Shown in pieces: positions 11,686-60,611 of a stretch of DNA of 64,000 bases. Within the stretch, counting starts at the first letter, position 1; every line of letters begins with the position of its first letter. The stretch is taken from sequence record OP555981.1; one strand, given 5' to 3'. This DNA is from Escherichia phage vB_EcoM-UFV10. A program made the translations under genes and the position numbers. The notes under the pieces are model-generated. The model did no database searches and had not been told where the DNA came from. It was given only the letters and a program-made list of their open reading frames with translations.

Positions 11686-12387
11686 TTATAGATTAAATCC
11701 TTCAAAATCAAGAGTATAGATAGTGTATGTTGAATACTTTTTATACTCATATCTATCTGCAATTCTAAATACACTTCCAGCTGGTATCATTACTTCTTGT
11801 TCATCTGAAACTAATTCCATATTACGATAACGATGGCTATCCGGAAACTTAAAGTTTGGATTGTATTCTTTACAGCGTAGAGCTTTTATAGCTTCTTGTT
11901 CATCTGAAACTAATTCCATATTACGATAACGATGGCTATCCGGAAACTTAAAGTTTGGATTGTATTCTTTACAGCGTAGAGCTTTTATAGCATACTCCTG
12001 GAAATTGAATACCATAGGAGCTTTGAATTCAAAAATAACCTGTGTGTTATACTCTAAACCAGAAGCAAAATGTAGAGCTATATTTTTATCATATGAAGCT
12101 GATACGACTTTATCAAATGTAATAATATCAATTCCTTGATTTAACACCTGCTTAGTCTCAGCTGGAACACCTCTCCAAAGAGGTTTATCGTTTGGAACCA
12201 AACGAGATTTGATTATTTCATTTAACCAAGTATGGTCATCTGGTTTGTTGGTAATACAATGAATTAAAAGTTCAATTTCAGATAAATTAAACCCTTCAGA
12301 AAGTAATTCTTCACGAATAGAAGCACGCACCGATGCATCCATTGATTTTATTTTAAAATCTTTTAGTTGCATTACTGAGTATTTCAT
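11686..12387 (-). CDS. modA: ADP-ribosyltransferase ModA-like carrying an internal 33-aa tandem duplication
   Basis: 233 aa (T4 ModA is 200 aa; 200+33); ART motifs R (LWRG), S-x-S (SAS), E-x-E (EQE); duplicated block AIKALRCKEYNPNFKFPDSHRYRNMELVSDEQE. Confidence 0.7.
   Translation of the reverse strand: MKYSVMQLKDFKIKSMDASVRASIREELLSEGFNLSEIELLIHCITNKPDDHTWLNEIIKSRLVPNDKPLWRGVPAETKQVLNQGIDIITFDKVVSASYDKNIALHFASGLEYNTQVIFEFKAPMVFNFQEYAIKALRCKEYNPNFKFPDSHRYRNMELVSDEQEAIKALRCKEYNPNFKFPDSHRYRNMELVSDEQEVMIPAGSVFRIADRYEYKKYSTYTIYTLDFEGFNL
11793..11990. repeat. perfect 99-bp tandem direct duplication (2 copies) inside modA
   Basis: 11793-11891 and 11892-11990 identical base for base; in frame. Confidence 0.9.
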
Positions 12388-13007
12388 TCAACTACCTCAA
12401 TATCATAAACTTTAAATGTTCCAAATGAATCGTGTAATTTTTCTTTTGAAATAGAAGTTATTCTATACTTTCCAATTGGAATCATCCATTCTTGTTCACG
12501 CACAATCATCATTAAGTTATCAGTACGCTCTGAATCTAACCCATCAGTATCTTCATATGTATACTTAAACTCAGTATTAGGAGAAGAAAGTATAATATCG
12601 CTGATATGGTCAGAGTAATTAAAAGCTTTATCAGTTTTTAAGCGAAGTATTGTTTCAGTGAAATATTCAGCATAAGAAAAAGAACACGCTGTATGCAAAC
12701 TAGTAGTAAATGAATCTACCCTGTTCGTTGAAAACACTTCTCCAACTTGTAAATCTTTAATGAGTTCTTTTGTCGATTTTGATATACCACGATATAATTG
12801 ATAAGGCGATTTAGTTAAATGCTTTTTAATGATTTTATTCAACTGTCTGTGAAGAGCTTCATTCTTTTTGGCTTCCATACATTGCCAAAGAATTGACTGT
12901 TCAAAGTCAGTAAATTTTTCACAGACCTTTTTATACATATCATATTGAAAATCAACGCTTTCGGCTTTTATAGATAACTGTTCAACATCTGCAAGATTAA
13001 TAATCAT
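12384..13007 (-). CDS. modB: ADP-ribosyltransferase ModB-like
   Basis: 207 aa as T4 ModB; ART motifs LYRG, STN, EQEWMIP; ATGA overlap with modA. Confidence 0.7.
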   Translation of the reverse strand: MIINLADVEQLSIKAESVDFQYDMYKKVCEKFTDFEQSILWQCMEAKKNEALHRQLNKIIKKHLTKSPYQLYRGISKSTKELIKDLQVGEVFSTNRVDSFTTSLHTACSFSYAEYFTETILRLKTDKAFNYSDHISDIILSSPNTEFKYTYEDTDGLDSERTDNLMMIVREQEWMIPIGKYRITSISKEKLHDSFGTFKVYDIEVVE

Positions 13008-55433: not shown

Positions 55434-55763
55434 AATTACATACTCCTCTGAATCATATCAATAATGTTGTTCACCAGATTATAAGTAAACATTGGGTAAT
55501 TATATTGAATCATCACATACACAACAAACAAAACTTTCATTCTCTTCTCCTTGGCAGTTGACAAGATTACTATACCATAACCTTGCCAACTTGTAAACCA
55601 TTAAATGACGTTTTCAATAAAATTCTGAAGCTTTGTGTGAGCATCAACCATGATTTTCATTTCTTCTTTGGCGAAAGCTGTACCTCTTTCCCGAGAAGAA
55701 CACTCATAGTCAGAAACTGCATTAGCATATTCTTCAATTAGTTTCATTAAAAACATCTGCTTT

Positions 55764-55958
55764 TCAGTTTTCATTATTCCACCTAATCATTTCAAGATAT
55801 TGAACTAACTTAGCTTTAGATTTATCCAAATCCTTTTTAGCTGCTTCTATACCGTCGTATGAATATCCTTCACAATGCTCAACTGCTAATTGATATGAAT
55901 CTATTTCAACATCACGTGCTAATTTAATGATTTTTTCAAACTGTTCGTGTGTCAGCAT
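55764..55958 (-). CDS. hypothetical protein
   Basis: 64-aa ORF. Confidence 0.4.
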   Translation of the reverse strand: MLTHEQFEKIIKLARDVEIDSYQLAVEHCEGYSYDGIEAAKKDLDKSKAKLVQYLEMIRWNNEN

Positions 55959-57136: not shown

Positions 57137-57349
57137 TCATTTTTGTCCTGTATTTACTTTATGCCGATGCACGGCCTTAACTTTATCAAGGTATTTTTCA
57201 AAATTTCGCAATCTAGTATAGTCTGCCGGAGATTGGTTGAGTGATACTTCTCGACGCAAAGCTGAAATGATATTTCCAACTTCCCTACGAATTTCATCTA
57301 ATTGAAGCACAGTAAGATTGCGAAGTTGCTTTTCAGTTAATTGTAGCAT
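57137..57349 (-). CDS. hypothetical protein (rI.1 position)
   Basis: 70-aa ORF; coordinates taken from the ORF track. Confidence 0.4.
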
Positions 57350-57391
57350 ATATACCCCTTTAGTTAGATAAACCTATTTATAACTTTTGCA

Positions 57392-57973
57392 CTAACCGAG
57401 CTTTTTAGTTAATTCATTCCAATGTTTTCTACACAAAGAAACATAAATTTCATCACCAATACAGATTTGATTACCTTCTTTAACTGGTGTTCCATCTTCC
57501 ATTAATCGAGCTGTCATAATCGCTTTTTTACCGCAATGACAAACTGCCTTTAGTTCAATAAGTTTATCTGCAATCGCTAAAAGTTCTTTAGAACCTTCAA
57601 ACAATTTTCCAGCGAAATCAGTCCTTAATCCATAAGCCATAACAGGAACATTATATGTATCAACAATTCGACTTAATTGATGCACCTGTTCAGTTTTTAA
57701 AAACTGAGCTTCATCTACAAATACGCAATGAATATCTTTTTGTGCTTCAGCCCATTTATAGAACTCGAAAATATCCATATCATCTGTAATAATATTCGCT
57801 TCCTGTTTAATTCCAATGCGAGAAACAACTTCACAGACAGAATCGCGAGTATCAATAGCAGGCTTAAGAACTAATACACTCATTCCACGTTCTTTATAAT
57901 TATGTGCAGCAGTCAAAAGAGAAGCAGATTTTCCAGCATTCATTGCTGCATAAGTAAAAATTAAACTCGCCAT
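57392..57973 (-). CDS. tk: thymidine kinase
   Basis: 193 aa as T4 Tk; P-loop AAMNAGKSASLL; C-terminal zinc ligands. Confidence 0.85.
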   Translation of the reverse strand: MASLIFTYAAMNAGKSASLLTAAHNYKERGMSVLVLKPAIDTRDSVCEVVSRIGIKQEANIITDDMDIFEFYKWAEAQKDIHCVFVDEAQFLKTEQVHQLSRIVDTYNVPVMAYGLRTDFAGKLFEGSKELLAIADKLIELKAVCHCGKKAIMTARLMEDGTPVKEGNQICIGDEIYVSLCRKHWNELTKKLG

Positions 57974-57982
57974 ATCACCTTC

Positions 57983-58168
57983 TTAAAGCGTATTCACATA
58001 AGCTATTAATTCATTTTCTTTCTTATCAAACCGATCAGCAAATTCTTCCTGCTGCTCGGGAGATAGCGGGCCGTATTCATCATAAAAGGTGTTTGCTTCT
58101 ATATGCTCATCTAGAAGTTCATGGATAAGCTCAAACAATTTATCTTTTTGTTCTTTGCTTAGACTCAT
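57983..58168 (-). CDS. hypothetical protein
   Basis: 61-aa acidic ORF. Confidence 0.4.
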   Translation of the reverse strand: MSLSKEQKDKLFELIHELLDEHIEANTFYDEYGPLSPEQQEEFADRFDKKENELIAYVNTL

Positions 58169-58334
58169 ATATTAATTTCCAGGAGTTTTAAAATAATTCG
58201 CTTTTGCTTAAATATTTCCATAGTTAAATGACCAGTATCTTTTTGACCGATTCCAATGGCAAAACCTTTATTAACAGCGAGTTCAATTAAATTATCAAGC
58301 TCACGTAACACTTCGTATTGTAACTCAAAACTAT

Positions 58335-58541
58335 TCATTTTGGTTTACCTTCTTTAACGAAATCAGGATAAGGGTAAAATCCTGAATAAAATCCTTCACC
58401 TTTATGATTGATGCATCCTTTATTAGAACAATAGCACCAATAATCGAAATCACAAGCCATTTCATCGTTGCATAAAGCAAAAACAACCGGCCACTTACAC
58501 TTTTCACAGTGGGCATTTTTAAGAATACTAGTTTGGCTCAT
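58335..58541 (-). CDS. Cys-rich putative zinc-binding protein
   Basis: 68 aa from ATG overlapping upstream stop (ATGA); CEKCKW...CNDEMACDFDYWCYCSNKGC. Confidence 0.4.
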   Translation of the reverse strand: MSQTSILKNAHCEKCKWPVVFALCNDEMACDFDYWCYCSNKGCINHKGEGFYSGFYPYPDFVKEGKPK

Positions 58542-58750
58542 AACCATGTAACCTTTAAGCAATATTCTTCTACATGTTGTTTACGACCTTTCTTATCAAT
58601 AAAGGTATATTCAACGAATGTTCCAATGTAGTCTTTATCTACATCATGTGGACTATTAATTGGACATTTAGTACGGCAAATGCGTTCCCATTGACGAATA
58701 ATTTCCACTTTGTTTTTAGGATCAAACGGATGTGGGTAATGTACTTTCAT
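58538..58750 (-). CDS. hypothetical protein
   Basis: 70-aa ORF. Confidence 0.4.
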   Translation of the reverse strand: MKVHYPHPFDPKNKVEIIRQWERICRTKCPINSPHDVDKDYIGTFVEYTFIDKKGRKQHVEEYCLKVTWL

Positions 58751-59201
58751 AATCCACCACTATTAAATCAATATCAGGAGTAAACATGTCGATTAATTTA
58801 GAAACCTTATCCCAATCGCCGCCAGCAATACCACAACCTATGCGTGGAATGTAAATTACTGGTTTAAACAAAAGGGTTTCTGCCTGTAGATTTAATTCTA
58901 TCATGCAGTTTACTAAAGCACCATAATCAAGATTAGGACCTGGTTCGTATTGCGTATACAAGTTATAACATATGCCAAAACCATTAGGTTTATGTTTAAA
59001 AACAATAGACATATCGCCTAATTTATCACGAGAACCGTACTCGGTAGTGGTTTTATCTATTTCTAAAATTTTGGGATAGGCTCTTGCTAATTGACCAGCT
59101 ACACCACTGCCCATTGTATGAAAACAATTGCACCCGTGCGCAATAATATTACCTTCAAGAAAGAGGGCGACAATATCGCCCTTGATATATTTTACAATCA
59201 T
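58722..59201 (-). CDS. macro-domain protein (ADP-ribose binding/hydrolase fold)
   Basis: 159 aa; IIAHGCNCFHTMGSGVAGQLARAYP and IPRIGCGIAGGDW resemble macro-domain glycine-rich loops. Confidence 0.5.
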   Translation of the reverse strand: MIVKYIKGDIVALFLEGNIIAHGCNCFHTMGSGVAGQLARAYPKILEIDKTTTEYGSRDKLGDMSIVFKHKPNGFGICYNLYTQYEPGPNLDYGALVNCMIELNLQAETLLFKPVIYIPRIGCGIAGGDWDKVSKLIDMFTPDIDLIVVDYESTLPTSV

Positions 59202-59545
59202 CTAGTACTCAATCCTCGATTATAAGAATCTACCAAACGGTCAACCATTGAATGACAAGCGGCTTTATCTTTCTCCTCCGCAACTGAACATTCTAAGGTA
59301 TTCCACTTTTTAGCATATCGTTTTAATAATGTATCGTTTTTGTATCTGCTTGATTTATCTCTTTCTCCGTCTTTATATGCATATATTAATTTCTGCGCAA
59401 ATTCAGCTTGGCATGCTTTATTTTTCCCACAATAATCTGCCGCAGTGCGGTTCACATACTCCCTAATTTCAGTATATGATGTATCTGCTGACGCATAAGC
59501 AGAAAATGAAATTAATCCTATACATAAAACCAAAATTTTAGTCAT
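59198..59545 (-). CDS. secreted protein (signal peptide)
   Basis: 115 aa; signal peptide MTKILVLCIGLISFSAYASA; Cys-containing mature part. Confidence 0.45.
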   Translation of the reverse strand: MTKILVLCIGLISFSAYASADTSYTEIREYVNRTAADYCGKNKACQAEFAQKLIYAYKDGERDKSSRYKNDTLLKRYAKKWNTLECSVAEEKDKAACHSMVDRLVDSYNRGLSTR

Positions 59546-60083
59546 TTACTATTTCCAAAAGTTTATTATTTTTAAGGTAGTTAGCCTTTTCTAGGACTTC
59601 AGAAGCATATTTAGAACCTGCTTTAACATTCCATCCCGAATTATAAGAGGATATTGCTTTTCTTATATCGCCCTTATGTATATTTAACCAATAAGAAAGT
59701 TCAATGTACGCCCAGGAAGCTGAATTGGATCGTTTATTCAACATTCTTTTTATTTCAGCATCGGTCATATTATAACCAAGTTCCTTAACTCTTGCTCGCA
59801 TAGTAGGCAAATAATTTTGGAACATTCCATAAGCGTGATGCTTTGGTTTAGATTTTAAATTAACTCCGCCAGAGCTTTCTTGCCATAAAATAGCAGCCAT
59901 TATATGACCTAATCCGCTCTTGTGGATATTTTTATGTGTTTTATATTTTCCATCCTTAGAAAACTGTTCCCCGAATTGATACGCGTAACGCATGTTATCG
60001 AGTTGGACATTACTGAAAGTATGCTCGGAGCTATGTGCCATCATTGAAATGGCCAATAGACCAGCGAGTAGTGCTTTTCTCAT
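59538..60083 (-). CDS. lytic transglycosylase-like protein (SLT domain) with signal peptide
   Basis: 181 aa; signal peptide; SLT motifs WQESSGG and AYGMFQ. Confidence 0.55.
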   Translation of the reverse strand: MRKALLAGLLAISMMAHSSEHTFSNVQLDNMRYAYQFGEQFSKDGKYKTHKNIHKSGLGHIMAAILWQESSGGVNLKSKPKHHAYGMFQNYLPTMRARVKELGYNMTDAEIKRMLNKRSNSASWAYIELSYWLNIHKGDIRKAISSYNSGWNVKAGSKYASEVLEKANYLKNNKLLEIVND

Positions 60084-60090
60084 GCTTACC

Positions 60091-60552
60091 TCATTGAGTT
60101 TTAATTACTGCTTTAGAAGCCTTTCCTGGTAAACGACGACTGTTAATAATTGCCATCCTGCATTGAAGCGACGGGTCTTTGAACTTCGCATTAGGTTTAC
60201 AAACTGTAAATCCAAGCCAAAGATTTCCATCTGTGATTTCTAAACGTCCAGGACGATATTCAACCCCATCAATAAAATCCTCGTCAATGTCAGGACGCGG
60301 AGGCATACTCAGGAATTCATTAACTTCTAAAACATGGTCTTTTATTTTATGGAATAATTCAAAAACGTATGTCTCATCAATCTCCCGTTGAATTGCGCGA
60401 TCAAGAAGATGTTGAGAATATTTTAGATGAAACGATGAGACCCCTGCTGCTTTTGATGCCTCACGAATCTCATTGTTAATTTGACGAAACTCCGACTCAA
60501 AGTGACGACGAAGCTTATTTCGACGGATAAAAACTTCTGTGTTGATAGTCAT
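60091..60552 (-). CDS. regB: RegB endoribonuclease
   Basis: 153 aa as T4 RegB; position between the vs-region and tk-proximal genes. Confidence 0.7.
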   Translation of the reverse strand: MTINTEVFIRRNKLRRHFESEFRQINNEIREASKAAGVSSFHLKYSQHLLDRAIQREIDETYVFELFHKIKDHVLEVNEFLSMPPRPDIDEDFIDGVEYRPGRLEITDGNLWLGFTVCKPNAKFKDPSLQCRMAIINSRRLPGKASKAVIKTQ

Positions 60553-60611
60553 GTTATTCTCCTCTTAACTGATAGAAAAATTATACCACAGTCAAGAGGA
60601 AAAGTAAACAG

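Follow-up and report, generated by a model that had tools for sequence, protein, structure and literature searches.

By sequence and position, the ORF on the minus strand at 58722..59201 (stop codon included, ATG start) of Escherichia phage vB_EcoM-UFV10 (OP555981.1) is the tk.4 (adfM) gene of T4-like phages, and it encodes a single-domain macrodomain protein of 159 amino acids; all positions are those of the window, the whole stretch of 64,000 nucleotides that we analyzed. By analogy with its T4 orthologue, the product is probably a counter-defense enzyme that resembles an orphan antitoxin and removes from phage DNA the ADP-ribose placed there by the host toxin DarT2. The UFV10 gene looks like an alternative allele that was swapped, as a cassette, into a conserved slot, and the family to which it belongs has a glutamine at the position of the catalytic lysine of DarG and TARG1.

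A predicted macrodomain with two conserved glycine-rich loops

Profile matches, comparison with solved structures and the modeled fold together make the macrodomain assignment a secure prediction. The Macro family of Pfam (PF01661) matched the protein at 33.1 bits (gathering cut-off, 22; E=6.2e-8) over positions 2-117 of its 118-position profile, and PHROG 335, a family labeled 'phosphatase', matched residues 1-156 at E=1.6e-71. In a sequence search of the PDB, the closest matches were Bacteroides BT1257 (2e-10), yeast Poa1p (2e-9), SCO6735 of Streptomyces (9e-8), DarG of M. tuberculosis (5M3I, 1e-5) and human TARG1 (9e-3). The AlphaFold2 model, computed from an input alignment of 53 homologues from which the T4 sequence had been left out, reached a mean pLDDT of 94.5 and a pTM of 0.89 and, together with its Foldseek matches, conforms to the three-layer alpha/beta macro fold. 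Foldseek returned 180 PDB matches to this model at E<=1e-3, with TARG1 as the best (E=8e-10) and, next in rank, BT1257, Poa1p and the macrodomains of DarG (5M31 and 5M3I). All of the top matches are either macrodomains (TARG1, BT1257, Poa1p, DarG and coronavirus Mac1) or macrodomain-like proteins (designed serine hydrolases and TTHA0132). Since the TM score is about 0.7 for TARG1, Poa1p, BT1257 and DarG alike, fold matches do not discriminate among them, and a choice of subfamily by fold was dropped. The Pfam and PHROG scores, coupled with 801 homologues at E<=1e-3 in a word-indexed protein search and tblastn matches in 2773 phage records, also establish that this is not a chance ORF.

The translation contains both loops expected of a macrodomain. 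Loop 1, the predicted ADP-ribose-binding motif, reads HGCNCFHTMGSGVAGQLA (residues 22-39; 59085..59138, minus strand) and includes residues H22, G23, N25, C26, G33 and A35, which are invariant in the family alignment, while loop 2, the predicted diphosphate-binding motif, reads IGCGIAGGDW (residues 121-130; 58812..58841, minus strand), with G122, G124 and W130 as the family invariants. The cores of both loops, HGCN25C...MGSG33VA and IG122CG124IAGG, are thus present and conserved across the family. A third motif, NLYTQ (residues 80-84; 58950..58964, minus strand), was located with MAFFT and hhalign alignments.

An earlier note on this DNA, made from the letters alone, had described a 159-residue ORF with two glycine-rich loops in the stretch between tk and regB and had called it a macro-domain protein. 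The ORF listing and the translation confirm the ORF and both of its motifs, the coordinates of tk and regB given below place it where the note did, and the call is borne out by the Pfam match, the fold and the motifs alike. The computational checks that the note had proposed came out in its favor as well: the macro-family profile scored above its cut-off, structure prediction gave a confident model with macrodomains as the top matches, and the conserved asparagine (N25) and both glycine-rich loops are present in the alignment.

A divergent tk.4 allele in a conserved neighborhood

The source phage is a T4-like Tequatrovirus, and positions 57300-60600 share 100% identity with phages vB_EcoM-UFV09, UFV05, UFV06 and UFV11 and 98-99% identity with hundreds of further Tequatrovirus genomes. 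From the ORF listing and the annotations of JLBYU24 and T4, the minus strand carries in order regB (60091..60552), vs.1 (59538..60083, with an SLT domain matched by Pfam), vs (59198..59545), the macrodomain ORF, a homologue of tk.3 directly downstream (58538..58750, minus strand; 70 aa, DUF7202), three small ORFs, and tk (57392..57973, assigned from the ORF listing and annotated relatives). The start of the tk.3 homologue overlaps the 3' end of the macrodomain ORF by 29 nt. At the other end, the stop codon of vs and the start codon of the macrodomain ORF overlap in the sequence ATGA (59198..59201, minus strand), an arrangement also found in T4, which suggests that translation of the macrodomain ORF is coupled to that of vs. 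In addition, the Shine-Dalgarno and AUG region is base-paired in a predicted RNA structure (z = -2.5). The genes regB, vs.1, vs and the macrodomain ORF are tightly packed on one strand and, judged by this spacing and orientation, presumably form one early transcription unit. Upstream of regB, we located a sigma-70-like sequence with an extended TG, TTTACT-17-TATAAT (60580..60608, minus strand); since the promoter and terminator scan of the window yielded 11 sites against 14.4 expected in shuffled sequence, and hence was not above chance, this is a candidate early promoter only.

The identification of the ORF as tk.4 is based on its slot, the ATGA overlap, a BLASTP match to T4 Tk.4 (58% identity over 155 aa, E=4e-70), the membership of both proteins in PHROG 335, and their shared invariant residues. 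The slot between vs and tk.3 is identical in the two phages, the order regB-vs.1-vs-[tk.4]-tk.3...tk is preserved, and the gene is syntenic across genera of the Tevenvirinae. All 14 residues that are invariant in the family alignment, including H22, N25, D49, N80, Y82, Q84, G122, G124 and W130, are common to the UFV10 and T4 proteins. Beyond these residues, the two alleles are quite different. The UFV10 protein is 4 aa longer, its gene has the 29-nt overlap with tk.3 that distinguishes it from the T4 gene, 42% of its residues differ, and its loop 2 has the family-consensus form GCGIAGG, in contrast to the derived IGAGIGKGNW of T4.

This divergence is confined to the macrodomain ORF. Flanking proteins are nearly identical to those of T4 (tk, 99.5%; vs, 99.1%; vs.1, 100%; rI, 99%; tk.3, 92.9%), as opposed to 58% for the macrodomain protein, and in 30-nt bins the block of nucleotide divergence (58720..59190) coincides with the ORF: 28-30 of 30 positions are identical to T4 in vs and, away from the overlap, in tk.3, compared with 10-26 of 30 inside the macrodomain ORF, and 23-24 of 30 in the two bins at its overlap with tk.3. 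Because a divergent gene is set within near-identical flanks, the UFV10 sequence looks like an alternative allele that was exchanged as a cassette while the slot itself was conserved. The UFV10-type allele occurs in 318 phage records at >=90% protein identity, and the T4-type allele in 224 records at >=90% identity and a further 159 at 80-90%, so that in sequenced T-even genomes the two are about equally frequent. The next nearest relative is 74% identical and occupies the same position in a Dhakavirus.

An active site without the lysine of DarG and TARG1

DarG was the only defense or antitoxin model in PADLOC and NCBIfam to match the protein, and several features link the two. The DarG2 macrodomains of M. 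tuberculosis (5M3I) and T. aquaticus (5M31/5M3E) share with the model the macro fold (TM ~0.72) and the active-site asparagine, and the T4 orthologue counters DarT2, the toxin that DarG2 neutralizes as its antitoxin partner. When the Tk.4 family was compared by hhalign with a DarG alignment comprising the M. tuberculosis, T. aquaticus and T. africanus proteins and PhiKZ gp104, the probability was 98.65%, with HGCN25C paired with NTVNC, so that the asparagine is conserved, and NLYTQ84 paired with NFPTK. N25 therefore aligns with the asparagine that is conserved in DarG and that was mutated in the PhiKZ protein AdfM (N23A).

Despite these parallels, we reject a DarG identity for the UFV10 protein, because of its score, its domain content, its active site and its neighborhood. 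It scored 27.8 bits against NCBIfam NF048014, a model of full-length DarG with a cut-off of 250, and 27.7 bits against the PADLOC model; T4 Tk.4 scored 30-36 bits against the DarG models, and PhiKZ gp104, which we used for calibration, 137.8 and 132.9 bits. At 159 aa, with a match limited to positions 2-142 of the 338 of NF048014, the protein lacks the C-terminal DarT-binding domain. It also lacks the catalytic lysine: the FPTK lysine of DarG is replaced by an invariant glutamine in the NLYTQ motif of the Tk.4 family. No darT gene adjoins the ORF, whose neighbors are vs and tk.3, and at the one bacterial locus inspected, that of the Pelagimonas P0095 homologue, we likewise found no DarT beside it but housekeeping-like neighbors. 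The DarG scores and the Lys/Gln difference also indicate that T4 Tk.4 and PhiKZ gp104, both of which have been named AdfM, are by sequence separate macrodomain lineages.

Human TARG1/OARD1 (4J5R/4J5S), the best Foldseek match (TMq 0.72, TMt 0.82), reverses thymidine-linked DNA ADP-ribosylation and shares with DarG a catalytic lysine (PMC8883491). Its identity to the UFV10 protein is only about 20%, and in a MAFFT alignment its K84/D125 dyad corresponds to Q84/A126, a comparison in which the TARG1 sequence was entered by hand, with a numbering consistent with the literature. Poa1p (6LFQ-6LFU) and BT1257 (2AFC/2FG1), the best sequence matches, have in common with the UFV10 protein an H-x-C-N-C ... 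G-x-G motif. In a phmmer alignment, H22 pairs with Poa1p H23 and T29 with Poa1p S30, two residues mutated in deposited Poa1p structures (the chain numbering is shifted by +3, by what we take to be tag residues). Identity to these proteins is nevertheless 21-26%, the Poa1p alignment breaks after residue 79, and BT1257 is a solved structure without known function. The labels 'A1pp phosphatase' and 'Poa1p-like' given to tk.4 go back to its likeness to Poa1p and BT1257; the gene is described in RefSeq T4 as 'phosphatase; contains A1pp phosphatase motif' and in other records as 'macro domain protein', 'Poa1p-like family protein' or 'hypothetical protein'.

The glutamine is a property of the whole family. 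Among 258 Tk.4-family members pooled from two database searches, Q84, Y82 and D49 are each present in 258, N25 in 256 and H22 in 251, and the signature residues as a set are each kept in 251-258 members; the UFV10 protein has every one of them (H22, N25, C26, D49, N80, Y82, Q84, P119, G122, G124 and W130). Q84 aligns with the catalytic lysine of both DarG (FPTK; by hhalign) and TARG1 (LITK; by MAFFT). The family is large, with 1185 clusters at 50% identity when E is limited to 1e-30 and 9480 when the limit is 1e-10. If Tk.4 proteins are hydrolytic, their sequences imply that they work without the catalytic lysine used by DarG and TARG1. A further lysine, K60, is nearly invariant in the Tk.4 family.

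Predicted role in counter-defense

That tk.4 is a macrodomain gene is already known, although the earlier note had not recognized the ORF as tk.4: a 2006 publication assigned orthologues of tk.4 to the A1pp/macro domain (PMC1524935), and a counter-defense role was given to the T4 gene in 2025. In a T4 transposon-insertion sequencing study posted in November 2025, tk.4 was dispensable on a plain K-12 host and was the one gene with significant depletion when the E. coli host expressed DarTG2; a clean knockout sensitized T4 to DarTG2, and the gene was renamed adfM, for anti-DarT factor Macrodomain (bioRxiv 10.1101/2025.11.20.689424). DarT2 ADP-ribosylates thymidine in single-stranded DNA and thereby blocks phage replication, and T4 lacking the NADAR enzyme AdfN is still resistant to DarTG2 (PMC11825919). 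The requirement for tk.4 on DarTG2 hosts indicates that its product reverses DNA ADP-ribosylation by host DarT2. The authors of the T4 study proposed, without biochemistry, that removal of ADP-ribose from DNA by AdfM 'seems likely' (10.1101/2025.11.20.689424), and among the papers that we searched there was no biochemical study of Tk.4. For PhiKZ gp104, a 2026 paper reports removal of the ADP-ribose that DarT2 attaches to an oligonucleotide, an activity lowered by the N23A mutation (PMC13309987). The requirement against DarTG2 is known for the T4 allele only.

Our preferred reading, which we consider probable on the grounds of sequence and analogy, is that UFV10 Tk.4 acts as an orphan-antitoxin-like enzyme on DarT2-modified phage DNA. 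According to this proposal, the protein would be made early in infection from the regB-vs.1-vs-tk.4 block, early timing and co-transcription both being presumed. As the DarT2 toxin of a host DarTG2 system modified thymidines in single-stranded phage DNA and stalled replication, the macrodomain would grip the ADP-ribose moiety through its two glycine-rich loops and hydrolyze it off the base, allowing replication to resume. Two steps of this proposal are taken by analogy, namely that the 58%-identical UFV10 allele would do the job of T4 Tk.4, and that the Tk.4 lineage would act by hydrolysis, which is known from the distinct PhiKZ lineage only. The occurrence of homologues in so many phage records fits a widely useful counter-defense function.

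The finding contributes little beyond what is already known of tk.4, and its value for phage-host biology is modest. By sequence and analogy, UFV10 very probably carries an orphan-antitoxin-like enzyme directed against DNA ADP-ribosylation, in the form of an allele 58% identical to that of T4. Two details merit the attention of specialists, namely that this allele is about as common in sequenced T-even genomes as that of T4, and that the whole Tk.4 family is without the lysine of the only characterized thymine-ADP-ribose hydrolases. In this respect, it is possible, although we hold the idea only tentatively, that the Tk.4 proteins form a lysine-less clade which, if it strips ADP-ribose from thymine, does so by a mechanism other than that of DarG and TARG1, and that the precise exchange between 58%-identical alleles, in T-even genomes with about 99% identity elsewhere, may reflect differing target spectra in an arms race with ADP-ribosylating defenses.

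An alternative, which we judge unlikely, is that UFV10 Tk.4 is a small-molecule hydrolase of the Poa1p/MacroD type, which would dephosphorylate ADP-ribose-1''-phosphate or deacetylate O-acetyl-ADP-ribose, or a degrader of immune signals such as the cyclic ADPR isomers of TIR systems, in which case any phenotype with DarTG2 would arise indirectly or be peculiar to the T4 allele. From genomic context, Iyer et al. argued in 2022 that phage macrodomains act for the most part on soluble ADPr derivatives (PMC9503650). Such a function would also suit the absence of the DarG/TARG1 lysine, the rank of BT1257 and Poa1p above DarG among the PDB sequence matches, the pairing of H22 and T29 with H23 and S30 of Poa1p, and the name 'phosphatase' in PHROG and RefSeq, but that label was carried over from the name of the domain, and we know of no source of ADP-ribose-1''-phosphate in T4 infection. 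Moreover, the sole known genetic phenotype of the family is sensitivity to DarTG2, whose toxin modifies DNA. The same phenotype speaks against one suggestion of the earlier note, that the macrodomain could destroy a host signaling nucleotide, since it points to DNA ADP-ribosylation by DarT2 instead.

It is also improbable, to a similar degree, that the UFV10-type allele is a de-ADP-ribosylase tuned to another DarT2 variant or sequence context, or to another ADP-ribosylating defense, for instance one acting on RNA, and that the cassette was swapped for this reason. The confinement of divergence to the macrodomain ORF, the frequency of both alleles among sequenced T-even phages and the difference between GCGIAGG in UFV10 and GAGIGKG in T4 at loop 2 would all fit such a change of specificity. 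However, replacement of accessory genes without a change in function is common in the mosaic genomes of T4-like phages, and the family-invariant residues are all common to both alleles. DarG-type hydrolysis, in addition, is reported not to depend on the sequence motif of the DNA (PMC8883491). With regard to RNA, T-even phages are sensitive to the RNA ADP-ribosyltransferase system CmdTAC (PMC11618068), so that a protective role of Tk.4 against CmdTAC is not evident.

We consider it highly implausible that the macrodomain acts on host proteins ADP-ribosylated (or RNAylated) by the phage's own Alt, ModA and ModB, reversing or editing their modification. The genome does contain homologues of modA and modB (11686..13007), but they lie ~46 kb from the macrodomain ORF, T4 tk.4 is depleted specifically with DarTG2 and dispensable on plain K-12, and the Mod and Alt enzymes of T4 modify arginine, from which ADP-ribose is removed by ARH/DraG-type enzymes and, to our knowledge, by no macrodomain. 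The suggestion of the earlier note that the macrodomain could reverse ADP-ribosylation thus holds in spirit, with the evidence on T4 tk.4 pointing to modification by host DarT2, and not to that by the phage's own ModA and ModB.

The earlier note was also right that modA and modB are present, although not that one of them is duplicated. We found one modA-like ORF (233 aa, 11686..12387) and one modB-like ORF (207 aa, 12384..13007), the former containing an exact in-frame tandem repeat of 99 bp in 2.0 copies (11793-11990). In the otherwise identical genomes of UFV09, UFV05, UFV06 and UFV11, as well as in other top matches, modA is 603 nt long and is without the repeat, and in UFV11 another stretch of 99 bp is repeated exactly in tandem (record positions 55601-55798), a sequence that is single-copy in the window (55690-55788). 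Since two different exact repeats of 99 bp occur in otherwise identical genomes, the modA repeat is probably an assembly artefact, and we infer that both are k-mer end overlaps of the assembler that were kept after rotation of the contig. Read in this way, the repeats provide no functional context for the macrodomain ORF, and we rejected the apparent modA duplication as such a context; as a probable artefact, it also weighs against a link between Tk.4 and the phage's own ADP-ribosyltransferases.

Discussion

Two groups independently coined the name AdfM for macrodomain proteins of separate lineages (10.1101/2025.11.20.689424; PMC13309987). T4 Tk.4, called AdfM in the former, is of the Gln-type, with Gln (Q84) at the catalytic Lys position of DarG and TARG1, and is matched by DarG models at 30-36 bits, whereas PhiKZ gp104, the AdfM of the latter (PMC13309987), is a DarG-like protein that keeps the Lys and is matched at 133-138 bits. 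This double use is a nomenclature trap when annotation is transferred. We also found a chromosomal member of the Gln-type family in a bacterium, Pelagimonas phthalicica (GCA_004364805.1; 6001-6459 of locus record L003), which is ~40% identical and lies among housekeeping-like genes encoding a redoxin, a DUF455 protein, a peptidase M23 and a Trp halogenase. Neither DarT nor any other toxin gene adjoins it at this one bacterial locus, and the Gln-type family is therefore not limited to phages or toxin-antitoxin loci.

At the start of the macrodomain ORF, the region containing the Shine-Dalgarno sequence and AUG is predicted to pair with the end of vs (minus-strand RNA, 59199-59239), and a GC-rich 8-bp hairpin is predicted 20-38 nt inside the ORF (59164-59182, same strand). 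The fold of a 121-nt RNA at this start has z = -2.5 against shuffles. Such a predicted structure would be compatible with translational coupling of the macrodomain ORF to vs.

The tk–tk.4 interval (57983-58750, minus strand) is mosaic relative to T4, with four small ORFs where T4 has three. These encode, all on the minus strand, a DUF7438 protein 54% identical to T4 Tk.2 (57983..58168), a 57-aa product with neither a Pfam nor a T4 match (58165..58338), a Phage_zn_bind protein (PF23895; 58335..58562) to which nothing in the T4 interval corresponds, and the DUF7202 homologue of tk.3, 93% identical to T4 (58538..58750). No homologue of T4 tk.1 was found in this interval.

The modA-like ORF (11686..12387, minus strand) contains an exact, in-frame 99-bp tandem duplication (11793-11990; 2.0 copies, 100% match), which makes ModA 233 aa long instead of 200. 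This duplication was found neither in UFV09, UFV05, UFV06 and UFV11, whose records are otherwise 100% identical, nor in the other top Tequatrovirus matches among those listed. Its origin is probably not biological but an artefact of k-mer overlap in the assembler, a reading supported by a different exact 99-bp tandem duplication in the sister genome UFV11 (OP555982.1, record positions 55601-55798), among small ORFs of the mobD region, where the window (55690-55788) carries a single copy of the sequence.
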